From Folioceros fuciformis (Eukaryota): DNA of 21,310 nt. Below, one piece after another: positions 1 to 21,310 of this stretch. Each line of letters starts with the position of its first letter. Positions within the stretch are counted from its first letter, which is position 1. Under the pieces are notes generated by a model that searched no databases, had not been told where the DNA came from, and saw nothing but the letters and a program-made list of their open reading frames with translations. The position numbers were made by a program, and so were the translations under genes. The stretch covers positions 296,361 through 317,670 of the forward strand of contig JBNGIO010006224.1 of NCBI GenBank assembly GCA_049999805.1. The letters are read 5' to 3'.

Positions 1-1050
1 CCTAGAATCTAACAAGATGTCTCTACCTGAATGTTGCAGGTTTGAACGGGTGTATCTTTCCTGGAAGCACCTAGTCTGAAAGTGCCCGAGGGGATGGTGG
101 TAGGCACATGTGGAGCAGAAGTAGGTGTAACACAGGTTGTTTGCTCTGGGGAGCACAGCTAATTTCGTCTAACCAGATCCTGCAGGCAACTTCCAAACTG
201 GCAAGCATGTGCAGCTGGGCATGTTCGCAGCCCTGACCAGTCACGTAGAAGTCAATGATGGCTTAGGATTGGTCCTTCAGCACTAGAGTAGGAGCACAGA
301 GGTTGACACCAGGTCGGGACATTTTTTTGACCCCTGTTGCATTTTACAAGGAAGTGATGTAGTGCAGTAGTAGACAGTTTCATGTAACAAGTAGAAGATG
401 CTGTGGATGAGAACTGGGAATCTCCCAACTGGTTGTACACATCTACATGTGTAACCAAAGTCAGGACATTTGCCTGAATCAGGATGATCACATCGCCTGC
501 CCGCATGCGCTTCTGTTGTTCAGAAAACTGCAGGGAAACTAAAACCACGTCAGCAGCAGACTTCCTTTCCCGATCCGAACCTGCCCATCCAAGTCTTTGT
601 TGCCCTTGAATATTAATACAAGAAGAAGACGGAAGACTACGATGGGTTGCACCAAATCTCCCGTTGACGACGGGAAGAGCGGGGTCAAGAATGACAAGGA
701 AGGATCCCGTCCTTTCTTGCAATTTGTCGACGGAAAAAGGAGGAGGGAAAGCTAAAAAGGACAGTAACAGGCGGACTTGGAAGAAGACAGCCAAAACTGC
801 ACCAACCATGGAACTTTCGTTGCCGGTCAAGAGGGGGAGATTGTATATTCATATTTTGGAGCTGATGCGACCTAATTCGGTGAAGATTGTAGTTTGCAGC
901 TGGATGGAAGCTGACACGGAGTTCATGTGCAGATTTGATGAATCGGTGCGCATCAAGCTCCCGAAGAGAGACAAGACATGAGGTTGAAGAAGACAAGACA
1001 GGAAGTTATAAGGAGTTTGACTACACAAGTACAAGATCGAGAACCCCCAA
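1..1050 (+). mobile_element. Probable 3' end of an LTR retrotransposon: degraded internal region, polypurine tract (829-840) and start of the 3' LTR (TG at 842). LTR end not determined.
   Basis: AAGAGGGGGAGA-T-TGTATATTC at 829-850 is the typical plant LTR-element PPT/LTR junction. A TATA-like TTATAAGG lies at ~1006-1013. Upstream + strand frames are stop-riddled, and no RT/INT motifs are visible in the window. Confidence 0.45.
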
Positions 1051-1907
1051 AAATATTATTTTAAATTATTTATTCTTAATATATTTTAATATATTTCCTC
1101 TCTTCCATGTAAACACTGTTGCCAATTATTCTCGATATTTTTTCCGTTATCTCCTCTCTTTTATTTATTTATATTTAATTTTCTTTTCCTCAATTTGGTT
1201 GTATTGTTTAACATGTTTCTTTTTTCACTTGTCTCTATCTTTTATGCTTCTTTGGTGGGTTGCAAAAGGTAAGGATGTCATGCCAACTCTTAGGTCCAAT
1301 GGCTACTCTAAGTAAACACCATACTAAGTCTATGAAACACAACACTTGGTTTGTCTAAAGACACTAATAATATGGCATAAGCTGCTTTATGGCCACATTC
1401 TCATAAATGTCCATCCATATGGTTTATTTGATGTGTGATTGTTAGTGCCCATTGAGAGCAAATGACAAGACCACCCCACACACTCGAGCAACAAGGGCAA
1501 AATCTTCATGAAAAGTGGCCCTCCTTGAAAGTAATGAAACTAGAGCCCCCTCCCGAACAGCCATCAAACAAGCTTACGATTGGGTTACACAATGAAGAAT
1601 TGATTTAATTATGGAGTTCCAATAACTTCATGTCTAACCATTATTCCTATGAAGGAACACTTAAAATGGTCATTAGATTAAACAATAGCCATTAGGGTTG
1701 GCGTAACATGCTGACCCCAATACAAGTTGACAAAAACATTTGTGATGCATAGAATATCATGACCATAATACCAGACCATAAGTAGAATGTAAGTGAACAT
1801 TCATGTATGATAATAATAATGAAACAAAACCCCATAGTACTATATAATACATACAAATGTAATACATGACCTATAGTTAAGAGGACATAAGGCAAGTAAG
1901 TAACTCT

Positions 1908-4900
1908 TTAAAAACACTCAGTATATTTTTTTTCACCATGATTGATATCATTGTTAATACACCTTAGAAATTGCAACCCTTGTAAAACAATACACAACTT
2001 TCCAATAATTATTGCATTATCTACTACAGATGTGACGTCCAACTCCATAGTTATTTCCTCAAACTGTTGATCTTGTTGTATGACATGATGTAAATTGACC
2101 TGCAACATAAATTTAGATAACGTCAAATTCATTTACATGATATTTGAATAAATATAAAAAAATCTGCTTATTTTAATTTGTTAAAGCTTACTTCGCTTGT
2201 GCCTATTTGATGTTGTTGATTTAAAAGCTCATTTTTTCCTATGACTTGGAATGGGATTATGGAAACTTCTGACTCTAGTAAAAGCCTTAAAGCTTTTCGT
2301 GCTTCTTCGTGCTTCTTGGGAAGAGAAAAAGCTAGACATTTGAAAGAAGAACATGGCATACAATTACTACATGATCTTCATGTAAGTTACAAGCCAAGAT
2401 GATGCAAACTCATAGCCTTAAGTGCAACTAACCTCTACTATACAAATAAAAAGTGGAATTTTCCATGTTCTCCACGCTTGGTGTACATTGATCAGATTTG
2501 TTACAAAACTTGGAAAGAAAATCAAACTGTATGAAAATAGTTTGAATGCATGGGTCTACATGCTCTGGTTGCAACTGTAAACATCTTATTGTTAAAATAA
2601 TACAATCGTCCTTGGAAAGCATGTTGTTGGGTTCCATTGCAATAGTTGATTGGAGTTTCTTCGTTGTCATGGTATCCATGTCTGGTTCTAGATGTTTTAC
2701 ATGAATCAATAAACTTTCATGTGACTTTCAAATAGGTGAGAAGAACTTTGTAAACTATGCACTACCTACTTGATTCATCATTAATTCAAACCCTCATCAG
2801 CTATTAAAAATTCATGTGGCACCTTCAATCTCGGAAAATGTGCACTCACTATCCGCTGTCCGATCACTTTCCCAAGTTCGATCTGTCTCCAAAATTAATT
2901 GATGAATTTGGATTTGTGGCTCTATACTTTCCCAAGTTCGATCTGTCTCCAAAACTAATTGATGAATTTGGATTTGTGGCTCTATACTTTCTCGAATGTC
3001 CTCCTAGACATAACAAGAATAGCTCTCAAGTATATGTGTTTGCTCAAGGAGAAAAGATATGAAACTTGTTGTGCATCTTATTACATTAGTCAAACTCTTA
3101 CCACAATGACTTCATCTACTTCCTTTGAAATTGTAGTCTCTTTGGATAAAAGGAATCCAACACTAGAATTTGCCTCAATGTCTATGTTTTGATAATGTTT
3201 AAGAGGATTGTTAAGTTGCATCTCTTCCTCGGGCGTTGAAGATGTGATGGAGTTTTGTAGGCCTTCATTGTAGTGGATTTCACTATCTTCTATCAAAATG
3301 GAGATAGGAATTCTCGTTTTCTCACAAATCAATCCATTTGTTCGTAGCCCAGTCTCATCAATCATCTTCCCTTTCAACGATGTTGTACAATCTTTGCTTG
3401 GTTGTGATCTGGAGGAGCATACATATGATATTGTGTCTTGAGCTTTACGAGGTGTTATTGGGTGGTTTTCGTTTTTTGCAGCCTTCATATCTTCAAGCAC
3501 TGTGTGCACTTTATTACACTCTACATTTTTCCTTTGATGTGACAACATGTGTCGAATCTTTCCAGTTAAGGACTTCGGGGTACTCAATGTAGAGTTTGCA
3601 TTACTAAGAGTAGACTTCGGAGTACTTGTGCATAAAGTTGGAACCAGCTCAGTCTTCTTGGTAAACTCATGTTTACAATCCTAATAATAGGTCGTGCATA
3701 TTAATCTAATGTATGAACAAACTACACATTTTGTTGTGAGAACATGAGTTAATCATAGATCTAAATTCACTTGGAAATACCTAGTCACGAGTTTTGAGAT
3801 AAGTAGTAAAACCCCCACCCAATCCAATTTCATCCAATCCAATCCAATCCAATCCAACCCAACCCAACCCAACATAAGGTAATTATAATTAAAGATTGTG
3901 TCTAATAAAACTCACAAGAGGTAGGTTATTCATGCTTGAAATTGTGTTTGTTTCATGTAGTTTTTGCAAAGCTCGTTCATGGTTCACCTTAAGTAATTCA
4001 AGTTCTTCCATTGAACTTTGATACATTTTATTAAGATTTTCCATCTTGGCCCATGTGTCTAGTAGATGTTTTTTAACATTGTTTTTTGAATCACCTTCCA
4101 TTAAGCAATCTGCTATTACACTTTCCAACGTGCTTTGATCATCTATATCTTTCTTTTCATGCACCATAATATCCCCACTATTGTTCTCATCATGAGGATT
4201 AAATTTATACATGGGTAAAATTTCCACCTGTATTTTCCTTTCAAGAATAATGATCTTTGTCATTAGATTTCTTACAACATCATATTTTTTCAGTCAATAT
4301 TTTATTAGTCTCTTTAATTTGTATTAAAATTTTAGAGGGAGTGAGTATGTAACAAGAAGTTATCTTTACAAACTAGAAATAAAGCCTTAGAAAGTAGAAA
4401 ATATCAAAATAATTTGGGTCCTTATAGTGTAATTTTTTTCCTTAGTTTTAAGCTCTTGCATATTCTTTTAAAATATAAAACCATTACTTGTGCTGTGTAA
4501 CCATAAATCATAGACTTAAAAACAATCTTACAGCAAGAACATTTTTTAGTATCTATTGATTTGATTTTTTTTAAAGAAATCAAGAAACAGACACAATCTT
4601 TGATTCTCTAGTTATTACTAACCTCTTGTTTTGAAGTTGGTGTTTTAGCATCAAAGTCTCGGAACTCATCTACTACAGCACGTGTTGATGAATGTGTTTG
4701 AAGAGTAGCTCCAGATTGCATAGCTGGTTTCTCATACTGGGTGAGCTTGACTTTCAATTTCTCATTTTGTGAGCGCAACTCGATAACTTCTTCTTTTAAT
4801 CTTTGTACCATCTACATGAAGATTCACAGTATGCAGCCTGAGACCTAGCACCAAACCGTTGAAAGTAGAATCCATCAATTTACTTGCTACTTGAACACAA

Positions 4901-5737
4901 TTGACATGCATTACAACAACCACATCCGCACATGGATTCAAAATCCCTGAATGATATGTGACCACCTTGCAGCTACTTACATGGATTCAAAATCCCTGAA
5001 TGATATGTGACCACCTTGCAGCTACTTACATGGCTATCTCGCCCTCGAGATGCAGAGGAAGGGTGTGCACTCCAATTTCGCCGCATGGTTTCCTCCAATT
5101 GTTTTTTGAGGGTTAAGTTTTGGTCCTTGTAATATCGAATGTGTTCTCTTCTCTTTTGTGCCTCCCTTTCTTGATCTCTAAGCTTTTGTTCTAGTTCTCT
5201 TACTTTCTAAGCCATGACATACAATTTTAGATATAGTTATAAGAAGGAGATTAGTAAAATAATAATTATAACTATCAAGTACGAATATCACCTCAATGGC
5301 AACATATTGCTGGTTGATCCTTCCTATTGCAGAATACTTGGCCTTGGAAGCAACACAGTTCTGCTGAATATCATCGCGCATTTGTCGTTTCACTGTATCC
5401 TCAGCATGCGCTAATCGCACAAGGAGCCTGCAAATTCATGGGTTGAGTACAATCTCAAGAAACGTATTTCATTCAAGCGGCCAGCAGCTTGTAAGGCATG
5501 AGGCTCTTACTGTTTGTGCTGGTCTTCTCTGTGGTTAACTGCCATTTTGAGTCGGAAGACTTCCGCTTGCATTTCTAAATACCGATCCTCTGATATAGGG
5601 CCTCCCTCCCAGATGGGGCGCCCTCGTTTGGATCTGATGTCGGTTGACGCTCCATACAAACTGCATTCATCGGACATGGCACCTTTGGAGCGGGCCGAGA
5701 CAGGCCTTCGCCCATCTATCACAGACACAACATCCAT
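1908..5737 (-). CDS. RPGRIP1L: RPGRIP1L/RPGRIP1 (Fantom, NPHP8, MKS5)-like ciliary transition-zone protein, ~795 aa, 10 predicted exons
   Basis: Predicted exons (-): 5737-5511, 5427-5292, 5206-5030, 4811-4623, 4227-3916, 3680-3102, 3003-2823 (alternative same-phase donor ending at 2850), 2687-2433, 2331-2192, 2099-1908. All introns are GT-AG with consistent phases. The N-terminal EDRYLEMQAEVFRLKMAVNHREDQHKQLLVRL..KVRELEQKL resembles the RPGRIP1L first coiled coil ([38 protein letters not shown], from memory). The C-terminal DDCIILTIRCLQL..IQTIFIQFDF..IIPFQVIG..IGTSEVNLHHVIQQ..IGKLCIVLQGLQFL resembles the RPGR-interacting C2-type domain. Boundaries of exons 5, 7 and 8 are the least certain. 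Confidence 0.75.
2866..2991. repeat. 60-bp tandem duplication (2 copies + 6 bp), in frame within predicted exon 7 of the RPGRIP1L-like gene
   Basis: 2866-2925 and 2926-2985 are identical except for one base (2895 T / 2955 C), followed by ACTTTC. On the - strand this encodes ESIEPQIQIHQL(V/I)LETDRTW twice. Confidence 0.95.
3819..3873. repeat. Compound pentanucleotide microsatellite (CCAAT)n/(CCAAC)n in an intron
   Basis: ccaatccaatttcatccaatccaatccaatccaatccaacccaacccaacccaac. Confidence 0.9.
4930..5033. repeat. 49-bp perfect tandem duplication that copies the intron-3 splice donor of the RPGRIP1L-like gene
   Basis: ACATGGATTCAAAATCCCTGAATGATATGTGACCACCTTGCAGCTACTT occurs at 4930-4978 and 4979-5027, followed by ACATGG at 5028-5033. 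Confidence 0.95.
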
Positions 5738-6602
5738 GGGCCGTTAAGGTTGTCGGAAGTGAAGTTGTAGCCTAAAGCAACTGCACAGGGGAACTCATGG
5801 GGTTCAGATCCACGGCACGGCAGCCAGGTGCTGCATTGTGAGACCAATGCTTGTTTCCCAATCCTTTCTGGCTCTAACCCTAGTCCATGTGAACCGACTG
5901 CCCTGCACCAATTCAGGGGGTACTTGCGGTTTCACGCACTAAACTAATCCGACCCGATGTGTGCACAGCAGGGGACTCTCACATTTCACTCCTTCGCCCT
6001 CGGCTCTCCTTCCTGTGTTTTGAGCCGAACTTGTCTCTGGTGGAATCCGAAACGCATTACTATCAGATCAACTTTTCTGGAAGAAGGAAGGGAACGTGGC
6101 AGAGGGCGGGAAGCATTCCGAGGCTGGTGCATGATCAGAACCGGCTACATTGCACACAAGCATCCGTGCAAGGAAGGACAGTTCAAGCCGACGCGACACG
6201 GAGTCGCCTGAGACGAGTGACGTGCAGCATGACAGACCCTACCCCAGGGCTCCAAGGCAGCAGGAAAGGAGTGGAGTGCACGTACCGCCGCGGTTGGCAG
6301 GGGGAGGCGAATCGGGCCGATCGGAGTCATCCATGGAGTCCAGGTATGCAAGCTCTTCTGCTGTGCGATTCAGATAGACCATGGCTGCGCGAGTGCCTGC
6401 GCACGCGCACGTCAAGGGGCGCGCGGCTCCGATGAGAAAGCAGCTCCCGCACTCCTCCGCCAACACAGTACCGAACCGAACCGGGCAAACGTGGTCGCTT
6501 GGTCACCTAAGCCCTGCCCGTGTGAAACGCTACATTCTTGGTCACCTTTACTCTTCTCACATTCCTCATCAGCCCAACCTCTCGTGTGGTGGCGTGGTCG
6601 GG

Positions 6603-7250
6603 ATGGCGTTGCATCTTGTTGCGCACGCGCATGCCGGGCTCACCAGGCCATTTCCCGGATCCATTTCTGGATTTTGCTGCGCTCCTTGCCACTTCTCTGG
6701 ATTGCGTCAGCGTCGTGCGGGGAGTGTGAGCAGGAAAGCCAGAACATGGGCCAGGTGCAGGGGTGACAGCGAAGAGCAGGGCAACAGGGTCTCAGTGTCG
6801 GGGCCGCTGCTGTCTTTCTCCGCTATATCGCCGTTTCTGGCAGATGGAGCCGCAGCTGCAGGAGGAGGTGCAGAGGATGGCGTTCAGTTGCATTCAGGCG
6901 GTGTTGAGAGTGTAGCAGCTTTTCTACACGGCTTGCCACTGGCTGACCTAGACCCTGACACAGCACAGCTTCTGGCCAACATCTTAGGTCCTTTGTTTGC
7001 CTCATTGAATTTCCTTTTCATCTTGAGGATCGTCATGTCCTGGTACCCTGCCTTGCCGGTCGGCAAGTTCCCTTTTGTGATTGCTTATGCCCCGACTGAG
7101 CCCGTGCTTGAACCTACTAGGAGGTTCATTCCGCCTGTGGGGGGCGTTGATATTTCGCCTATCGTTTGGGTTGCATTGCTGAGCTTCCTGAATGAGATCC
7201 TTCTAGGGCAGCAAGGGTTGCTTGTTCTTTTATCTCAAGAGAGGCTCTGA
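6603..7250 (+). CDS. CCB3: Cofactor assembly of complex C subunit B CCB3 (YGGT/YlmG family, cytochrome b6 heme ci assembly), chloroplastic, 215 aa, intronless
   Basis: The C-terminal DLDPDTAQLLANILGPLFASLNFLFILRIVMSWYPALPVGKFPFVIAYAPTEPVLEPTRRFIPPVGGVDISPIVWVALLSFLNEILLGQQGLLVLLSQ matches plant CCB3. The ATG at 6603 (ggATGGCG) begins an Ala/Arg/Ser-rich, transit-peptide-like N-terminus. Confidence 0.9.
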   Translation: MALHLVAHAHAGLTRPFPGSISGFCCAPCHFSGLRQRRAGSVSRKARTWARCRGDSEEQGNRVSVSGPLLSFSAISPFLADGAAAAGGGAEDGVQLHSGGVESVAAFLHGLPLADLDPDTAQLLANILGPLFASLNFLFILRIVMSWYPALPVGKFPFVIAYAPTEPVLEPTRRFIPPVGGVDISPIVWVALLSFLNEILLGQQGLLVLLSQERL

Positions 7251-7808: not shown

Positions 7809-9388
7809 CTATCCAGATGAATGCAAGGCCAGCTTTGCCATATGCTCCTTCCTAGGAAGCTTCACTTTGGTGGCCAAACCCACAGCTTCCAGAGCCTTAA
7901 CCACATACCACGTTGGGTCCAGCTGCCACCACTCGAGACCGTGTCGAGCAGAGTACTCGAAGGCATGATGGTTATTGTGCCACCCTTCGCCGAAGGCCAA
8001 AAGAGCTACCCACCTGGACGACCAAACGGAGCAGCTTAACATTAGATTCCAAGGACAGCACAACATCGTGGGGAATGGCTGCTCAAGAATTGCCAGAGAG
8101 TTATCCTCACCAATTGTTCCTGGAAAGATCACCAGTGTTCCACTGCTGAGTCCCCCACACATGAGAAGCCGAGTTCACAAACCATGTGATGTGATAAACC
8201 CACACCGTTCGGACAGCCTGCAGTTAACAATACTCTGTTAGACCGTGATCAGATGGGGATGGCCAACACGTAATATGGGCAGATAGAGTGACACGACATA
8301 CCATGCCCCAGACTATGTAAGGGACGCCTCCCAGCGCGTACAGTAGAACGGCCATCATCGTCGGATGAAGAGGATAGGTTTTCTGGACAAACTTGTAGAA
8401 CTTGTCATTCTGCATGTCACCAATGTTGCTGCGAGCTCCAACCTACGTGGTGCTGGGCAACGTTAGAGAAGAGAATAAACCATTGACACCTTCCTGGAGT
8501 TCAAAAATTCAGAAAGACATACCCGCTGTTCGGTTGACAGGTCATCCAGCAACCATCCCATGTGGCTGTGCCAAAAGCCTTCGTAAGGAGAGTGCGGGTC
8601 CAATGCTGTGTCACAGTGTTGATGGTGATACCTGTGGGAGCTCACCCATTCCAAAGGATCTCCCTGAATACCAGACCACACCAAGTCACTGCGTCATCAC
8701 ATCAGCTCATTGAGGAACCAAACTAACATAACTATGCTAGCTCGGTTATTCCAAGAATTAGGGGGGACAAAACCTGCACAGCTTGGACTCCGCAGTAGGC
8801 GAAAGTATACTCCAACCACTTGGGCAGCTTGAAACTCTTGTGTGACAAGTTCCGGTGATACGACAGTGTGATACCAAAAAGTCCAGTTATCACGTAAAGC
8901 AGCACAAACACTCCAAAAGCTTGCCATGAGAAAGTAAACGGGGCAAGCAAGCAGAGAGCATGCATCACCCCTAAATAGCCTCCGTACATCAAGTCCTTAG
9001 CTGTCCACTTCCTGTTCAAAAAGTAGGGCCTCTGCCTGGTCACTGGAACCTCAGAAAACCAGATTCTGCTGGCCCCCGACGTGGATGCAGCTGCAGCTTC
9101 GGTTTCCTCGCAAGCAGCCTCAACACGCACTGCACCTTGCTTCCCTGACCGAGGTCCTCCAGTGAGAACCAAGCATCGAAGCGCTGATCCTGAGAAAAAA
9201 TCTCGGGCCTGTATCCTCGTCGCCGAGCTTCTCACAGAAGCACTCCTGCTACAACAACCTCCTGCGTGGCTAGGGACTGCAACAGAACTAACAGGGCTGG
9301 CCTGCCTGTGTTTGGTAGTTTGCGACGGGGATGCCCTAGCCGGCACGTTGCACGCTCCGACAACAGGAATTGAAGCGGCAACCGCCAT
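7809..9388 (-). CDS. FAD5: Acyl-lipid (ADS family, delta-9-like) desaturase with a plastid transit peptide; probable palmitoyl-MGDG delta-7 desaturase FAD5/ADS3, ~402 aa, 5 exons
   Basis: Exons (-): 9388-8774, 8663-8523, 8442-8302, 8217-8111, 8013-7809, all GT-AG and in phase (1209 nt). Three His boxes HRNLSH, HRYHH and HNNHH, plus GITLSYHR, QGDPLEWV, DPHSPYEGFWHSHMGW and WFVNSASHVWG. The N-terminus is Ser/Ala/Arg-rich. Confidence 0.9.
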
Positions 9389-9610
9389 TGACGCTCGCTG
9401 TGCACAGAAGTGCCACCAAGTGTGCCACGGCCTCACAATCGGCGCATTTCCACCTCGAAAACACCCGCAACAGGTCTCCTCCCCGCAAAAACCTCGGGCG
9501 TCAAAACCTTTGCGGATGCCGCCCTAGTGAAATCAAAGGAAAAAAAACGAAGCCACTATCTGCACTGAGTCGCTACTGTGCTCAGCAGGCTAACCAGAAA
9601 CGAACCGAAC

Positions 9611-10693: not shown

Positions 10694-13600
10694 TCACTGT
10701 GGGCCAGCAGCCAGGATCTCCTCTGTCAGCTTGCTGTCCCCACCCACTTGGTAATCGGCAAACTTCTCAAAGTTTTTCTGAAATAATCTGGCCAGTTTGG
10801 TGACGGTTTCGGTGTAGGCCGCTTTGTCAGCCCACTGCACATGTAAGCACGAGGGAAAGGATGACTTGATTAGAGTGCGTCAGCTGGAAACCCAAAAGCC
10901 TCGGTCAAGGAAGCGGGTTGTGTGAAACTTACCATGGCCTCGGGATGGAGTAGCTCTGAAGGCACTCCCTCCACAGCGTCAGGGATCTGAAGACCGAACA
11001 CAGGTGTTGCAGAGTAGGTGGCTTTAAGGAGAGCCCCGTTGTGGATGGCGTCGATGATCTTGCGAGTGTATGCCAGCTTAATACGCTGACCCACCCCGTA
11101 GCTTTAATTCAACATGATACATAAGACGGTGTGAGCTTGTGTGCGAATCAGTAGTGATGGCATCAGGATTATAAGCCCACAACAATACTGCATACCTGCC
11201 GCCTGTCCATCCTGTGTTCACGAGCCACGCTGTGGCACCGTGAGTCTGCATCTTCTCTGCCAACATGGCTGCGTATTTCGTTGGGTGCAGCATGATGAAC
11301 GCAGCTCCGAAGCAGGCAGAAAACGTGGCCGTTGGCTCTTTAATGCCATCTTCAGTGCCAGCCACCTAGAATGCGAACGACAGACTCTGGTGTCAGGGTA
11401 GCGAGAGCCCCACATACACCAAGGTGTTAAGGATGTTGTGACATACCAGAGCAGTGTATCCACTGATGAAATGGTACATAGTCTGGGCCAGGCTGAGCTT
11501 GCTCACTGGTGGCAAGACACCGAATGCATCGCATGCCAGAAGAATGATATTCTTCGGATGGGGACCCACACACGGGATCTTTGCATTTGGCACAAACTCT
11601 ATGGGGTAAGCTGCCCTTGTATTTTCTGAGATACAAGACACACGCAACGTCAACAACCGATAGCCTGTACTAATGCACCAAAAATATATCACACATATTT
11701 TGTTTCCTGTACCTGTAACGGAGTTGTCTGTGAAGTCAACCTCCCGAAAATGCTCATCGAACACTACGTTCTCTAGAACTGAAATCCCAGCGACAAAAGT
11801 ATCAGAAGCAGAGTATCCGTCATGGAAGAACTGACGAAGCTGCACGGAGAGCAGTTATAGGGACCACAAACTGAGTGAGCATCAGGTACCAGTGCCAAAT
11901 TTGATAGCATTGAAGATGTCTGGCTCCTTCTCACGAGACAGGTCAATGCACTTGGCATAACATCCTCCTTCAATGTTGGAGACACCCTTGGAGCTCCAGC
12001 AATGCTCATCATCGCCAATAAGGTAACGGTTATGATCTGTTGACAAGGTGGTCTTTCCTGTGCCTGCAAACGAGCACATTAAAACAGTTTATGTGCTGTT
12101 TCAAACATGGAACTGCAAACAAAGAGCAAAGCAAGGACTCGTCCTCTTACCCGATAGGCCAAAGAACAATGCCACGTCTCCAGATTTGCCCATGTTACAA
12201 CCAGAGTGAAGTGATAAAATGCCCCTCTTGGGCATCAAGTAGTGCATAACACTGAAGAGTCCCTTCTTCATTTCACCAGCGTACAAGGTCCCCAGGATCA
12301 CCATCTCTCTTCTCCTCAAATTCAGATCAATGCTGGTAGAGGAGGTCATGTAGTGCGTGTATCGGTTGCAGGGAAACTGTCCAGCATTGTAGATGGTGAA
12401 GTCCGGGGTTCCAAAGTCCTCGAGTTCCTCAGCCGTTGGACGAATACACCTGCCAATCATACACTTGTAACAAAACCCTCACCAGAGACGAAATGTTATG
12501 TGAGGACTTGAACCCAGAGACTGGTGCACAAGTGAAATCGAGTGTGACATTACTCACATGTTGTGCATAAACAAGGAATGATAAGCCTTTGCGGACACTA
12601 TCCTGACTTTGATGCGGTTTTCAGGATCCCAATTGAGAAACTGGTCATTCACAAACACCTGCATGCAACACAGCAGGATGTCATCAACAGGGCAGGAGAT
12701 ATTTGCCATTGTTTGGGAAGAGTTCTACCCAGCCTGTAAGCAACCTTTTCAAGGGACGTGAGGTAGTCCACGGCCCGTTCCCTGTTGATTAAGAAGGTCT
12801 CCTCATCCATCTCAATGTTGGGAGACCCCCTGCAAAAGCACGAACGAGGCCGGCCAGCCAGAGTCAAAAATTGAAAGAGTGCGCGAGTGAGTAGGACGAG
12901 GCGCTGGGATTCACGATAAGGCCTCTTACTTTCCCCACCATAGGTCATTCTGGGAACTATCTTCAACCACAACTCGCTTATCTTTGGGCGAACGACCAGT
13001 CTTGGCTCCGGAGAGAGTGGCCAGAGCTCCAGTTGCAGTGATGTACGATCCCTTCTCAAACTTGATCGCCTGCTCGTAGAGCTCTGCGAAAAAGGAAAAT
13101 TGAGACGGAACGAGGTGGCACGGCATGCAGTGGTGGCCTCAGTGCGAGCTCACCTCCTGGAGACAGATTGTAGAGCACATGAGTGAACTTCAGCGAGCTA
13201 TCACTGATGACGGGCCTGGTCGGTATGAAGGACTCTCGATGTCTGGACTTTTCCGGATCCCCGGTCACAACTTGAGGCCCGATATCCCGAGTCAAGGACG
13301 CAAGAGATGCACTGCAACAAAGCACGCACGCACGCACGCACGGGGGTGAGGCACGAAATCCAGGTACCCGAACGTGCGGCACAGAAACAAGTCAAGCACT
13401 TGCCCCTGCAGGGTGGCCGGACGTACCTGATGGAGTACATCCGCTGGCGCTGCCTCTCCTCTTCCGAGATCCTGGAGGCGCTCCTGGGAGTGGAGGGAGC
13501 GGATTTCTTCTTCTGCATGGAATGCAAATGATCAAGCGAGCTGGCTCGCACGGTGGGAGTGCTGTCGTCCGTGCACACATCCAGGTCCCCATCCTCCGCG

Positions 13601-13725
13601 GTCCTACCGCGCAACGGGGTGGAGACATCGTCCGACGGCCCCTCCGACCTCCTCAGCGTCTCAATCTTTGGCAAGCCGTTGAGCCCGCTGGTGCCGTTGG
13701 ACTCGAAGATGGCGTCCTGGCCCAT
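10694..13725 (-). CDS. PCK1: Phosphoenolpyruvate carboxykinase (ATP), plant type, ~664 aa, 12 exons
   Basis: Exons (-): 13725-13427, 13311-13154, 13083-12930, 12829-12745, 12658-12558, 12449-12151, 12063-11890, 11778-11713, 11625-11447, 11365-11196, 11101-10933, 10834-10694 (1995 nt, all GT-AG, phases consistent). Motifs: [19 protein letters not shown]-loop [55 protein letters not shown]. The plant N-terminal extension contains KKKSAPSTP. Confidence 0.97.
13322..13342. repeat. (GCAC)5 microsatellite next to the intron-1 acceptor of PCK1
   Basis: gcacgcacgcacgcacgcacg. Confidence 0.85.
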
Positions 13726-14530
13726 GGCGCACACTCGCTCGCTCCCGCTCCCGCTCCGGGGCTCAGATAAAGCGCGACGCGGCAAGACAAATTAACAAAG
13801 CCGCGGCAATTGCGACAGCGAGCTGGCCGGGAGAGTCGATCGGGCCTGTCCGGAGGCTCAGGCCAGATCGAGCGCGGCTTGCTGCTGCAGCGGGTGCGGG
13901 AGCGGGTGCGGAGCATGAAAGTCGCTGGCGATGACAGCCCGAATCGATCTCCTTGTGCCAAGGGGGAAGGATGGAGCTCGTTGGGCGTTTTGCCTTTCGT
14001 GTAAGCTGGTCCAGGCACGGCTGCCAAATGGGGTTTCATGCACGAGTTGGGGTCCAATGTGAACACGTCATTATGGACGTTCCCGAGGACAAAGGGGTCG
14101 AATATAATCCCGTGGCCCCCTACTGTTTGTGTACTGGCTGCAGCGTCCTTCGGGCAGCCGGGCAGGTGACTTGGCGCGCTCCCGTTGCCGCATTGGCTCC
14201 TTTGCTGACGCGGCAGCGCATGGGGCTACCCTGTTATCCCCCTGCCCGCTGCCCGCGGCTTCTGCAACGAATACAACCTAAGGAATATCTCCCCTCTTCA
14301 CTAGAATAGTTAGATAGGTGGTAGACAAGTATCTCGTACTTATCCACACACCACGCAGGGAATAAATTTACTGTTTGCCTGCAACCTATTTTTAATTCAG
14401 GAAATGCTGTCAAGATATTTTTCACAGTAATAATTAATAAAATATTATTTTACATCTTACTCATTCCTAAACCTATTTTTAATCGTATTCAACGCTTTTT
14501 TTCTCCCCAAAGTTTTGGTTTTTCCTTCTT

Positions 14531-15228: not shown

Positions 15229-16345
15229 ATGGTACGTATCTTGAGTACATATCTTAAAGATGCAAGATGCCAAGGCATGGTAGAAATCGTAGCTACTCAC
15301 TCTGAGGTGGGTCCTCTAGACACAATTGTCCAAAAGGATCTTCACCAAGGAATACAGCAACTATATATATCTAGATAAGGTGCTGGACCTCTACAAGCGA
15401 AAGTACTCTAACCTCTGGCTCCGGAAGTTTGCTGTCAAGCATTCTCCCAATACATCTACAAAAGGATGGATTCCGAATAGAAATCAAGAAGTTGACAAAT
15501 TATATCGAAAACGTTGCTACCGGCGTGGGCAAAACCCTGATTTGTACTACATAACTCGATCTTCAACATCAGCTTCATCGAATTTCCTGTCAAGACCTTT
15601 TGAGGAGGCCTTTCGACCTATTGCGAGAACCCAACCACCTGCAGCAACGCAACTCGAAATTTAACCCCTACACCAGCATAATGAGTGTCAAGGAAAAGAC
15701 ACGAGAAATTCTCACCCACGTGGAGAGGGTCGTATCTGTAGTGTCTGCAAATCATATTTGTCTCAAGAACAGAATCCGCTATCTAGACTTCCAAGCAGAG
15801 CGAGCAATTCTTGTCTGCACGGATCGACTCCAGCAAGACATTGGTAATTTTAATGTTCTCTTGCAACAGATGGGTTCGAAGCTGTAGAGTTTTGAACAGG
15901 ATTGCTCACCTATGGACTCCAGTGCTCATGTTTCTTAAAAAATTTCCGCTGCCCATGAGTGGGAACATTCGAGGCGTAGGAGAAGTTGTCACCCAGATCT
16001 GAAAAAGCGCTTTTCTATCCTACACCTCCTCGCAAATTTGCTGCACAGTAGAACATTGGTCAGTTAATGTCGTTTCCCAAGAATGGGACACGACAATTGT
16101 TTTTGACCTAATTGAAACGTCATAATGATAAGGCATTAATTTTTAAGGTTTTGTCAATAACGTTTCATGATAGCTCGAAAGGAAGGCTGAGGAGTTTAAC
16201 ATGAGCAGGGCATAGCCAACAGCTGCCAACACATGCAACATGCATGCATGCAAAAGTTCATTAACAACATGCATGCAAATCTTGGATATCGCATACCTAC
16301 TTGTACAGTAAGGGCCATAGCTTGTTACAGTCAAACCAGGTGTTC

Positions 16346-19300
16346 ATGTCCACTACATTCCTACAGGCACAGTTGAACACATTAACAACTAACTTTCAAC
16401 AGCTTAACCTTAACCAAGTTGTTCAAACAACTCAACCATCATCTATTCAAATGGCAGCAGCTGTAAGCACCCCATCCTTTACCTCAGACTTTAAAGGAAA
16501 GGATAGGTTTAAGGGACAAGGATACTTGATTTGGAGAGTTTGCATGAAAAGCATGTTGGTTGCACGTGGTGTCTAGCCTGTCGTGGAAGGCACCTCCAAG
16601 AGACAAGACTCCAATGCCACTCCAGCACCCTCGGTTGATGAGATTGCCAAATGGGACTTGCTTAACGACATTGCCATGGCCCTGCTCATCGGAGGACTGG
16701 ATGCAGATCTCGTTCCTGAAGTTGAGTTCTTCACAGCCATGGCTGAAATCTGGACACAACTTGAAAGGACATATCAAGTGCAAAATATGATGACCCTCTA
16801 CGCTGTAAGGCAGGAGTTCTATGCAGTTAAAATGAAGGAAGGCGACAAGGTGGCAACTCACACCAGTAGATTTTGACATCTACGGGCACAACTGACATCC
16901 TTGACCGGTAACAAGATGTTTGAATTGGGCGCTAAGTCAGGTCATCGTTTATGTACCTTCCACATGCTTGTAGACTTTAACACTTACTGTTTCTACAGAA
17001 AGCAATTCCCTAACAAATGCATCTTGAAAGGTATTTTGGAGAATGTTCTATACAAGTTAGACATCACCTGTTAGAAACAGTCCGTCAAACATGTTGCCCA
17101 TTCAGCAGAAGCTAAGTCACTTAGCTCTAGGCAGGAAGCTATTTTGTGGCATGCCTGATTAGGGCATATCAATCGTTCTAAGCTGATGGACATGTCTGTG
17201 ACAGAATGTCATCGTGAACCACTCCCAAAGTGTTTTAAGCATTTGCCTGTGCATGAGTCGTGCATTCTAGCGAAACAGAAAGAATCCCCGTTTCCTAATG
17301 CACCTACATACAGGGCGACACAAATGCTTGGTTTAGTACACGCTGACATATCAAGAAAAATCCAGGAACCCTCACTGGGAAGTTCTCAATACTTCTTTAC
17401 ACTGACAGATGGCTACAGTAGATATACTTGGACGTTCCCTATACAGCTGAAGAGCAACACTTTTTCCTGCTTCAAAGATTGGCTGACCTCTGTCCAGAGA
17501 CAGTATGGAATGCTGCTAAAAGTGCTCAAGACAGATAACGGGACAGAATTTGTGAACCAGCCTTTTGATGACCTACTGCGAGAGCATGGGATTCTTCGTC
17601 AGCGCACTGTTCCTTACACACCACAACAAAACGGCGTGTTAGAACGTAAGAATCAAAACTTTGCTGGTGATGACTCGAAGCATGTTCATTTGGGCTGGAT
17701 TACCTCAGGGTTACTGGGTAGAGGGTATTGTCCCCGCGACATACATCTTGAACAGGGTGTTCACTAGCTCTGTCCCACACAAGACTCCTCATGAGGTGTT
17801 ATGGTCCCGCAAGCCCAACTTACTCCATTTAAAGGTTTTTGGATCTCGAGCCTATGCATATATCCCACCTAATAAAAGGAAAAAGCTTATCCCCATTCAC
17901 AGGAGCTACTCTTCGTTGGGTACAGTGAAACTACAAAAGCATATAAGCTGGTTAACACAGAAACTGGATCTATGACACTTGCCAGAAGTATTAAGTTTAT
18001 TGAGCCAACAGTTCCATCTCTGGATGCTAATAATGAAGGCAACAACATCTTTCATCATACCTCTCCAAATGCTTATTCAACAGAACCAGATCTAGATATC
18101 AGTAATTATCCCTTGGATGGTATGGAACAAGTTGTCCCCTTGCCGACTATGAACCCATAGGCTCAGGCCCCACCTGTAGGCTCCGTTCCAGCACCGGTTA
18201 ATCCTGGTTCTCCCATTCCACCCTTACTAGATGGAGAGAGGGTACTTCCGGGTGACCCAGAGGCAAAGGGGGCCCTTGACATGGTTGCAGCTGCAGATGT
18301 TGCTGACCCTGATGATCAAGAGGAACCTGATATTGAAGATGATCCTGCTACCAACCCTGAACCTGAACCAGATCAGGGACTCAGGCGTTTAATACAACAT
18401 AGACCACCACCCTCAAAATGGAAGGAACCTCGTTATCAATCCATCAATTTTCGAACTCACCTTGTTCCCGGTCTTGTTGCTAGTACAATTCTACCGGATG
18501 AGCCCACCAGTTTGTCTCAAGCTTTCACTAGTCCTGAACATGTGCAATGGAAGGCCGCAATGGAGGATGAATACCAATCTCTTGTCAAGAACAAGCCCTG
18601 GGTGCTTGCGGATCTCCCACCATGATATAAGACCATATCCTGCAAATGGGTCTTTAAGTTAAAACTGAATGCTAAAGGAGAAGTGAGGGGGGTACCAGGA
18701 GGTCTATATATGCNNNNNNNNNNNNNNNNNNNNNNNNNNNNNNNNNNNNNNNNNNNNNNNNNNNNNNNNNNNNNNNNNNNNNNNNNNNNNNNNNNNNNNN
18801 NNNNNNNNNNNNNGAAACCATATTCTCAAAGCAAGACTTATGGCTAGAGGCTTCACTCAAGTTGAAGGGCTTGATTATCAGGAAACTTTCTCACCTGTTG
18901 TGCGTAACCAATCCATCAAACTCATTTTACCCTATGCCACAGAGTTCAACCTTGACCTCCAGCAGATGGATGTTTGCACGGCATTCTTGTATGGAGCACT
19001 CAATGAGGAGTTGTATATGCTCCAATCTGAGGCGTATGAGGACCCTGCACACCCAAACAAGGTATTAAAACTCCTGAAGTGTATATATGGTCTAAAACAG
19101 AGTGGAAGGGTGTGGTACATCACTATGCATTTGTATCTGCTCAACATCGACTTCGTTCAAAATACGGCTGACACAAATGTCTATAAGCTTACCCAAGGAT
19201 CCTCCATCATCCTCACCACCAATGACCAAGCACTGTTGTCAGTAGTTAAACAGAAGCTCCACAAAAGGTTCGACATGAAAGATATTGGGGAGCTAAAATT

Positions 19301-19677
19301 CTGTCTGGATATACAACTGTTACACGTTAGAGATGCAAGCCTTATGTATATACATCAGTATAAATACATAAACGAAATTCTCAAGAAATTCAACCTTGAT
19401 CAAGCCCCGCCAACAACCATCCCTTATGCAACAGGTACTAAGTTGACATGTTTACAGTATCCACAGACTACTGTAGATGAAATCAAAGACATGGCAGACA
19501 TACCTTCTAGGCATGTTGTTGGCAACCTTCTGTTCGTTGCAAATTGGACCAGGCTGGACATTCAGTATGCAGTCAACTCTGCCTCACAATTTCTTGAGAA
19601 CCCCCCGAGAGTACATTAGACAACTATTAAGAGGATTTTCCGTTACCTCAAAGGCACAAGCACATATGGCCTTATAA
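16346..19677 (+). pseudogene. Copia gag-pol pseudogene (gag N-terminus/UBN2, GAG-pre-integrase, rve integrase, RVT_2)
   Basis: gag: FKGQGYLIWRVCMKSML, EIWTQLERTY, RQEFYAVKMKEGD. Pre-integrase: LWHA*LGH. Integrase: LVHADI, DGYSRYTW, KTDNGTEF, PYTPQQNGVLERKN. RT: CKWVFKLK, KARLMARGF, DYQETFSPV, QMDVCTAFLYG, IYGLKQSGRVWY, FDMKDIGEL. In-frame stops at 16574, 16874, 17072, 17156 and 19617; frameshifts near 17660 and 17890. Confidence 0.92.
18714..18813. other. Assembly gap (100 N)
   Basis: Run of exactly 100 N. Confidence 1.
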
Positions 19678-20014
19678 CACAGTCTGCGCCTAACGGTCGT
19701 ATTCCGCCAAATCGGGCTTCGGGTCATTTTCGGCGTCATTTTCCGTGGCACATATCCATAAATCATGCTATTTGGTGTGGATTACCCCCAAATCTACAGA
19801 AAAACAGTCACGAAAAACTTTTTAATCGTCATGTTTACCCAGAAACTAGCCGAAATTATGGGTTACCAACAGTAAAACTTTTTGATCTTATCTAGTTCCA
19901 CGGTTGGTCTGACACTACCGCCTGCATGTAGACGGAATGATATTTTTTGAAATTGGAATTACTTGAAACTGTAAAATGTTAAAGCTTTTTCAATAACATT
20001 CATTTAACCCTGGA

Positions 20015-20360: not shown

Positions 20361-21310
20361 TCATGCGAGGTTTTCATCAAGTTCATGTAGATGGTTTTCT
20401 TGACCTTGCCTAAGCACGTACAAGTTCTTTCTAATAAGGTTTCGAGTGCGAGCGTGCAGCTGTTTTTTACGAGTCAACTCAAATCCATACGCTAAAATAA
20501 AAGTGTCCGCGACAAATATTGTGTCAATATGCTTCCGAAGTCTTCTGCTTGGCCGTCGCTTACGTCGTCGTGTAGAACCCATGGCCAGGTCTTCATTCGG
20601 CAATATCATCTTCTCTTGATAACGGCCTTCAAATGCATCTGAACATTTCGTGACCCACCAATAGACTGTGATATTTTGAGTATCATTTTCCTTCTGCGTG
20701 TCCAGCACTTTCGTGATCCAAAAAGGCCTGTTGTCTACGTCTATCTCGCATGGGACAGCAATCATGTGCCCTACTTCGATCTCTGATACATCTCCACTGA
20801 AGCTGTCAACATCGTTCCCAACGTGTGCGTCTTTTCTATACGGCCCCACATACATATCTCTTCAGGAACTTCTCGTATCCGTGGGTTCTCCAACACCAAA
20901 GCATTTGGCACGAGTAATGGGCTGTTTACCAACTCTGCCTCGTTGCGATTATAACATTGCCATGGCAAGTCATGATCTTGCTCTACACCCGAATTAATAA
21001 TTTGAACGATGGCCTCTTGCTCGGCCCAAAATGAATCCCACCAGATGTCTTTGCCCACACCTAAGTGCTGACGTAATTTGAACTCCAATCTTGATCGAAT
21101 CTGGCACAGATTATATCCTGGGACATCGTCTGTAATACTCTTTTGTTTCCTACTCCTCACTTGCAGATGCATCAGTCAAGCGGCTTTCATATTCCTCTTC
21201 GGAACTGCTTTCAGGAGTTCTATCCCTTCATCAGGCGACCAGTATTGATCAGTGGAATACTGTTTTCCTCTCATAACTGTAACAGGTCCACGATCTCCGC
21301 GACTCTCTTT
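20361..21310 (-). pseudogene. C-terminal part of a disrupted transposase-like ORF; its 5' part lies beyond the window
   Basis: The frame from the window edge reads VTVMRGKQYSTDQYWSPDEGIELLKAVP..AA*LMHLQ.., shifts near 20850 and continues GHMIAVPCE..PFWITKVL..ITVYWW..RRRKRRPSRRLRK..FELTRKKQLHARTRNLI. These resemble C-terminal segments of eukaryotic DDE-transposon-derived (DUF7869-type) proteins from memory. The catalytic core is not in view. Confidence 0.5.

Follow-up and report, generated by a model that had tools for sequence, protein, structure and literature searches.

Human RPGRIP1L (also NPHP8 or MKS5) is a protein of 1315 amino acids (aa) in which coiled coils (CC) are followed by the RPGRIP1N-C2 (N-C2), PKC-C2 and RPGRIP1C-C2 (C-C2) domains. 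The protein is an organiser of the transition zone, the ciliary gate at the flagellar base, and the second of its central C2 pair is bound by NPHP4. RPGRIP1L and NPHP4 interact, and the terminal C2 binds RPGR in animals (PMC4466403; published sources are cited throughout for the available sections of their text and supplements). The locus described here lies on the minus strand of a stretch of 21,310 nucleotides (nt) of the hornwort Folioceros fuciformis (assembly GCA_049999805.1, contig JBNGIO010006224.1, positions 296,361 to 317,670), henceforth the window, and probably encodes an RPGRIP1L-like protein of about 820 aa. Like human RPGRIP1L, it has predicted coiled coils at its N terminus, a linker that is long and polar, and RPGR1_C (PF18111) as its last domain; in contrast, neither N-C2 nor PKC-C2 is detectable in it, searches of the hornwort genome found none of the partner MKS families and phmmer reached no database protein. 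On balance, we read it as a divergent, single-copy RPGRIP1L/NPHP8 orthologue that probably still encodes 820 aa and has lost the central C2 pair.

Other known members of the family depart from the human protein in different ways. The green algal proteins of Micromonas pusilla (GI 303288630) and Volvox carteri (GI 302841651) appear in both the N-C2 and the C-C2 alignments (PMC3495828) and thus keep the N-C2 that is undetected in the hornwort protein; the C-terminal C2 row of Micromonas resembles, by eye and over its length, the product of hornwort exons 8–10. Chlamydomonas and Micromonas have MKS and NPHP4 genes (supplements of PMC3495828 and PMC4092220). Paramecium RPGRIP1L shows the opposite loss, keeping the coiled coil and the central C2 domains while EF-hands replace the C-terminal domain (PMC7093003). 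In C. elegans, an MKS-5 construct reduced to the coiled coil is still targeted to the transition zone and still recruits CEP-290 (PMC4794247), which means that a protein lacking the central C2 domains can be functional; unlike the hornwort protein, that construct is an engineered truncation in an organism with MKS and NPHP modules and Y-links.

For land plants, Physcomitrella and Selaginella moellendorffii are reported to lack all known transition-zone complex proteins (Barker 2014, PMC4092220). Their gene sets include no MKS/NPHP module genes, and the absences of MKS models in our hornwort genome searches are alike; unlike in the hornwort, no RPGRIP1L orthologue is called for either species in the available data (PMC4092220). 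The supplement gives weak, uncalled best matches (8e-7, 2e-6) seemingly near the RPGRIP1L column, the columns being unreliable as extracted. According to the same source, the sperm of Selaginella and of five clades of non-seed plants lack Y-links (hornworts are not named in the text at hand), the absence of transition-zone proteins is used to argue that these proteins build Y-links, and RPGRIP1L generally co-occurs with an NPHP component, absence not being distinguishable from divergence (PMC4092220). In the available supplement of Zhang and Aravind (PMC3495828), Selaginella is named once and Physcomitrella twice, neither in the RPGRIP1 alignments. We found no report of a land-plant RPGRIP1L in the literature searched, which was mostly without subscription journals, and database annotations may exist; the available parts of PMC5850483, PMC9023351, PMC4888484, PMC3268115 and bioRxiv 2020.12.21.423647 added none.

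A Single-Copy Gene with a C-Terminal RPGR1_C-Type C2 Domain

The gene is present in one copy in the 87-Mb genome, as judged by DNA and protein searches, and comprises 11 exons, numbered 0 to 10, joined at GT-AG introns. The original prediction had placed an RPGRIP1L-like C2 domain at the C terminus, and this was borne out by two methods applied to different exons. Exon 10 matched the Pfam model RPGR1_C (PF18111) over model positions 116–164 (E 8.2e-5; 23.0 bits against a cut-off of 22.9). For exon 8 searched alone, the top match in the ESM Atlas was the FTM/RPGR1_C cluster (0.90, 171 shared features), ahead of other C2 families. Exons 8 and 9 gave no Pfam match when searched singly.

In addition, we took seven degenerate RPGRIP1C-C2 motifs from rows of a published alignment (supplement of PMC3495828), composing them with the query in view. 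All seven occur in order within residues 655–796, and none of 5000 shuffles exceeded three, a significance that is overstated by the post hoc choice of the motifs. Two of them straddle the exon 8/9 and 9/10 junctions, thereby supporting these ab initio junctions. Each of these lines is borderline singly; taken together, they make RPGRIP1L-type identity very probable.

At the other end of the protein, the windows are rich in E/K/R/Q and poor in Pro with a heptad bias, and zipper-type Pfam matches stayed under the cut-off. Neither the Pfam scans nor a homologue search with exon 1 yielded a family-level match for this N-terminal coiled coil, the likeness of which to that of RPGRIP1L we presume. 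The resulting architecture would run from coiled coils at the N terminus through a linker of about 280 aa to a single RPGR1_C-type C2 at the C terminus, a description that we consider slightly likelier to be right than wrong.

No Detectable Central C2 Pair

It had been suggested that the gene lacks the central C2 domains and that its introns are too short to hide them. The analysis supported both suggestions, the first in that no central C2 domain was detectable. Of the minus-strand stop-free stretches of at least 22 aa, 77 were listed, and 62 of them (three trimmed) were scanned against Pfam together with exon 4; the 14 outside the scan are located either past the stop codon or no further downstream than exon 1. 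No C2-C2_1 (PF11618), PF00168 or other C2 family besides RPGR1_C was detected among the scanned stretches, and no stop-free stretch within the nine introns of the original model is longer than the maximum of 61 aa. Searching the genome with the PF11618 profile, run without a positive control of the same family, gave no match, and thus no split-off N-C2 gene was seen; a different ciliary C2, that of C2CD3, registered at only 20 bits in the genome search. The gene model contains none of five N-C2 motifs, and exon 6 (193 aa) had no usable Atlas match. As neither N-C2 nor PKC-C2 was found, the hornwort protein is a variant of the RPGRIP1L family and not a standard member.

The composition of the region agrees with the earlier description of a Ser/Thr/Glu-rich, probably disordered linker: it is polar and poor in aromatic residues. 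Residues 373–650 have a FoldIndex of -0.02 and 2.9% F/W/Y, versus +0.19 and 7.1% for the C2 domain, and the linker of about 280 aa is probably disordered. AlphaFold runs on single sequences were not used as evidence: the C2 part of exon 8, which served as the control, was modelled as mainly helical (pLDDT 57.5), and exon 6 reached a pLDDT of 35.0.

Exon 7 carries a 20-aa in-frame repeat (2866–2991) with a strand-like alternating motif similar, by eye, to strand 1 in a row of the published C2 alignment; it is either a relic of a lost C2 or due to chance. A match to DUF5754 above the cut-off, in an off-frame stretch over the same 60-bp repeat, was taken as a repeat artefact.

Coding Constraint on Exons 4–10

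Exons 4–10 contain no stop in 615 codons (1845 nt), versus 42 and 58 stops in the other frames. After 5% of neutral change, the probability of finding no stop would be 0.015, and the two longest frames (196 and 134 codons) exceed those of Markov shuffles (P 0.0005 and 0.001). GC content falls from 0.50 in exons 0–3 to 0.36 in exons 4–10, where it is 0.45/0.32/0.32 at codon positions 1/2/3, 0.25 at four-fold sites and 0.29 in the introns. First positions have thus held their GC while third and four-fold sites fell to the intron level, which implies that the shift towards AT took place under a kept reading frame. Furthermore, the exonic tandem duplication (60 bp) is a multiple of three in size and the intronic one (49 bp) is not. 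Judged from the sequence, any silencing of the 3′ half would be recent, that is, younger than a few percent of divergence.

These exons lie in an AT-rich island, poor in CpG and CHG, at 1000–4800 (GC 0.29–0.40, versus about 0.45–0.60 elsewhere in the window), which reaches some 900 bp past the stop codon. A (CCAAT)n microsatellite of 10.8 copies is located in intron 5 (3819–3872).

Ciliary Gene Inventory of the Genome

We searched the genome for other ciliary genes with profiles, exon by exon, in a fragmented assembly (7240 contigs) in which absence is not proof. All four ciliary control families were found: IFT46 (88 bits), SAS-6 (74 bits), DZIP1 (37 bits) and C2CD3-N (20 bits), the last being below the cut-off and, by eye, like the moss row. 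The C2CD3-like gene (C5480:57317-57535) has a divergent N-terminal C2 spread across two exons. In contrast, none of eight models for transition-zone partners (B9, Meckelin, CC2D2AN-C2, DUF5523, which we take to be a model of CC2D2A, CEP290 CC5, TCTN, TMEM231 and TMEM17/216) had a true match; seven of these models are of the MKS module. The single match to TMEM17/216 turned out to be a copia reverse transcriptase, showing that 20-bit matches in the genome search can be false. Earlier, it had been proposed that this plant may build the transition zone of its sperm flagella with a reduced scaffold; the inventory, with no partner family against four of four control families, fits that proposal.

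Dirigents, which are a land-plant marker, gave 29 matches. LCIB gave two collinear matches (C1919:3950-4891) and is reported, in the available sections of PMC8075897, from algae and, among land plants, from hornworts alone. On these two markers the genome looks like that of a hornwort, whereas the 72 listed matches of the IFT46 search, none with a land-plant name, did not settle the lineage. BBS5 was not found in the genome search, as expected from Barker 2014.

Gene Structure, Transcripts and Neighbouring Genes

The ten-exon minus-strand model originally proposed (ATG at 5737, stop codon at 1908, exon-5 acceptor at 4227) could be rebuilt exactly, with 795 aa, no internal stops and GT-AG introns, but its 5′ end was wrong. 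Its start codon (5737–5735) lies inside the 570-nt intron 0, since the loose end of RNA contigs at 5716 maps to 6287. The revised protein is of 820 aa (ATG 6382) or 804 aa (ATG 6334); both ATGs of the upstream exon are in frame with the downstream exons, and the phases of all exon junctions are compatible with a single reading frame. As acceptors of exon 5, 4372, 4363, 4311 and 4270 were rejected because they break the frame, and 4254 because it ends in AAG, although it keeps the frame. The features of the gene are collected in Table 1.

Table 1. Exons, introns and repeats of the RPGRIP1L-like gene (positions within the window)
Feature	Position	Strand	Evidence and remarks
Exon 0, coding part	6286..6382	-	RNA loose end 5716 maps to 6287; GT donor and frame; acidic, Pro-rich N-terminal peptide
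Intron 0, 570 nt, GT-AG	5716..6285	-	RNA; part retained in one contig, depth 7.5 vs ~40
Exon 1; 3′ end begins first predicted coiled coil	5511..5715	-	RNA cover and joint 5426/5510; single copy in genome
Exon 2, predicted helical/coiled coil	5292..5427	-	Both bordering introns seen as RNA joints
Exon 3, E/K/R/Q-rich predicted coiled coil	5030..5206	-	RNA joint 5206/5292; composition
Intron-3 read-through to stop codon	4973..5029	-	RNA contigs cover 4955-5208; 223-aa coiled-coil-only product
49-bp perfect tandem duplication copying the exon-3 donor site	4930..5033	.	Repeat search; 79-nt RNA contig = one period + 30
Exon 4, predicted coiled coil then linker	4623..4811	-	Ab initio; zipper-type Pfam matches under cut-off
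Exon 5, possible upstream extension	4228..4372	-	Better-looking acceptor 4372; one base out of register at A-run near 4285
Exon 5, last predicted coiled coil	3916..4227	-	Ab initio; acceptor uncertain
Exon 6, 193-aa polar linker, no C2 signal	3102..3680	-	Ab initio
Exon 7, acidic linker	2823..3003	-	Ab initio; carries in-frame 60-bp tandem duplication 2866-2991
Exon 8, linker end and first part of RPGR1_C-type C2 (from ~2610)	2433..2687	-	Atlas top match 0.90; motifs; no Pfam match alone
Exon 9, middle of C2 (inserted helix and strand)	2192..2331	-	Ordered family motifs, two straddling its junctions; no Pfam match alone
Exon 10, C2 end and stop codon	1908..2099	-	Pfam PF18111 positions 116-164, 23.0 bits; sole RPGR1_C match in genome

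The RNA contigs stem from one public run of the same or a nearly identical organism (seven of seven records with at least 99% identity), the tissue of which is not stated. They confirm the introns 5510–5428 and 5291–5207 and cover exons 0–3 and the stop codon in intron 3 at a depth of 24–40; a transcript terminated in intron 3 encodes 223 aa. The missing RNA cover over exons 4–10 in the contigs of one run is not proof of silence.

Head-to-head with the RPGRIP1L-like gene lies an intronless open reading frame (ORF) of the YGGT family (6378–7250, plus strand; Pfam 64 bits). Its first ATG (6381) overlaps the upstream ATG of the gene (6382, minus strand) on a palindromic site, and the real YGGT start may differ. 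A promoter shared with the YGGT gene could account for transcription of the 5′ exons outside sperm.

Further along the window, a spliced fatty-acid desaturase gene (7809–9523, minus strand) has a Pfam FA_desaturase match on its last exon and an apparent plastid transit peptide, and a multi-exon gene for an ATP-dependent phosphoenolpyruvate carboxykinase (PEPCK; about 11078–13791, minus strand) scores 131 bits in Pfam on one exon. Contamination was ruled out, as the RPGRIP1L-like gene is on a contig of more than 317 kb beside the YGGT, desaturase and PEPCK genes. A broken copia-type retrotransposon with gag and integrase matches follows at about 16265–19900 (plus strand), including a run of N near 18.7–18.8 kb, and two open frames of 166 and 134 aa at 20361–21175 (minus strand) have no Pfam match.

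Evidence to the Contrary and Alternative Explanations

Several observations weigh against an intact, divergent RPGRIP1L orthologue. As regards identity, the exon-10 score sits at the Pfam cut-off and drops below it (22.5 bits) when the match is trimmed to the exon, and the genome-wide RPGR1_C match (19.7 bits) scores less than the copia match proven to be false (20.4 bits). The Atlas recognition value of exon 8 (2001) is under the reliability mark of 2300, making this evidence moderate. Sequence searches for homologues brought up one candidate for exon 8 with a word index and eight for exon 1, none of which scored in either case, and phmmer with exon 8 against 1.84 billion representatives returned none at E 0.001. 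Exon 10 likewise had no match among the sequences of the PDB, and of 160 pattern matches to exon 8 in metagenome contigs, none was confirmed. The limits of the inventory given above belong here too, and the mechanism, localisation and partners proposed below are entirely inferred.

The remaining contrary observations concern the 3′ half, and they bear on what we regard as the most serious alternative, albeit an unlikely one: that exons 4–10 are a recently silenced relic, the working product being the 223-aa protein from exons 0–3 that ends in intron 3. Exons 4–10 would no longer be spliced on, possibly after the duplication of the donor or a frameshift before exon 5. Indeed, the RNA passes the exon-3 donor at 5030 into intron 3 and ends at 4955, covering the in-frame stop near 4975, at the depth already given for exons 0–3; the contigs of this one run hold no joint from exon 3 to exon 4, and exons 4–10 stay ab initio. 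The 49-bp duplication copies the exon-3 donor. Before exon 5, the acceptor at 4372 has a pyrimidine fraction of 0.71, versus 0.35 at 4227, but would need a one-base frameshift, the open segment of 29 codons at this acceptor being shifted by one base relative to exon 5. The 3′ exons are also AT-shifted and CpG-poor: GC at third codon positions is 0.32 versus 0.51–0.57 in the IFT46, SAS-6 and C2CD3-like exons, and the CpG ratio is 0.47 versus 0.76 in the 5′ exons. The failure of the genome searches to find partner genes would suit decay as well. Against a relic stand the 1845 nt without an in-frame stop and the AT shift, which took place under coding constraint, and one run of unstated tissue says nothing on sperm.

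It is improbable that the architecture is an ordinary one with the central C2 domains present in exons 5–8 and diverged beyond detection. The central region is long enough to conceal two decayed C2 domains, the linker of about 280 aa having room for two minimal ones; the C-terminal C2 that is truly there is itself barely detected exon by exon, with no Pfam match for exons 8 and 9, Pfam was scanned with single exons and stretches, and the strand-like motif of the exon-7 repeat could be read as a remnant of a first strand. Yet in the available parts of the alignment, no other region of the family is conserved as widely as N-C2 (ciliates, trypanosomes, algae), and none of the five N-C2 motifs is present. 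Exon 6, moreover, is one piece of 193 aa without an Atlas or C2 match, and its composition is unlike that of a beta-sandwich.

Similarly small is the chance that the gene is no RPGRIP1L orthologue, being either a lineage-specific coiled-coil protein with another C2-type domain or two adjacent genes fused by the model, as the N terminus without a family match, the borderline scores and the GC drop between exons 0–3 and 4–10, with the RNA ending in between, might suggest; Pfam and the Atlas, from different exons, agree on RPGR1_C, rather than any other C2 family, as the best match, the order of coiled coil, linker and terminal RPGR1_C is the published architecture minus the central pair, and the junction phases fit one frame.

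Proposed Role and Significance

For the preferred reading, a divergent orthologue without the central C2 pair, we propose that the full-length protein would be made in spermatids as a residual docking or spacing scaffold. Its coiled coils may bind the distal basal body or the transition-zone doublets, a targeting that we propose because the MKS-5 coiled coil localises on its own in C. elegans; the linker would provide flexible tethering, and the terminal C2 may have a binding partner, be it a protein or a membrane. The hornwort protein would have given up the role of a hub through which the MKS and NPHP modules combine in a gated zone with Y-links, and the loss of the central C2 pair would fit the loss of the modules that it connects. 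Other tissues might make mainly the short transcript ending in intron 3, from the promoter head-to-head with the YGGT gene. As a tentative extension, less probable than the reading on which it builds, no other transition-zone protein may have survived in this land plant, which would have lost the MKS module and Y-links, and selection would have maintained this one after it shed both central C2 domains. It would then mark a gate-independent core job of RPGRIP1L (basal-body docking or doublet organisation by means of the coiled coil and the terminal C2), the output being switched between the full-length and the coiled-coil-only protein by termination in intron 3.

That a land plant in which no MKS genes were detected has an RPGRIP1L-like gene at all matters more than the short length of the product. 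This presence is the larger surprise because moss and Selaginella were reported to be without any transition-zone proteins, and an RPGRIP1L-like gene under coding constraint in a ciliated land plant would be an exception to the published view. Should the 3′ half be a relic instead, the locus would document transition-zone decay in progress. If the preferred reading is true, the order of loss would have been the modules and the central C2 domains first, and the coiled coil and the terminal C2 last. The hornwort protein would then represent a human ciliopathy protein in a naturally minimal form, and would make testable the role of RPGRIP1L where no gate is built.

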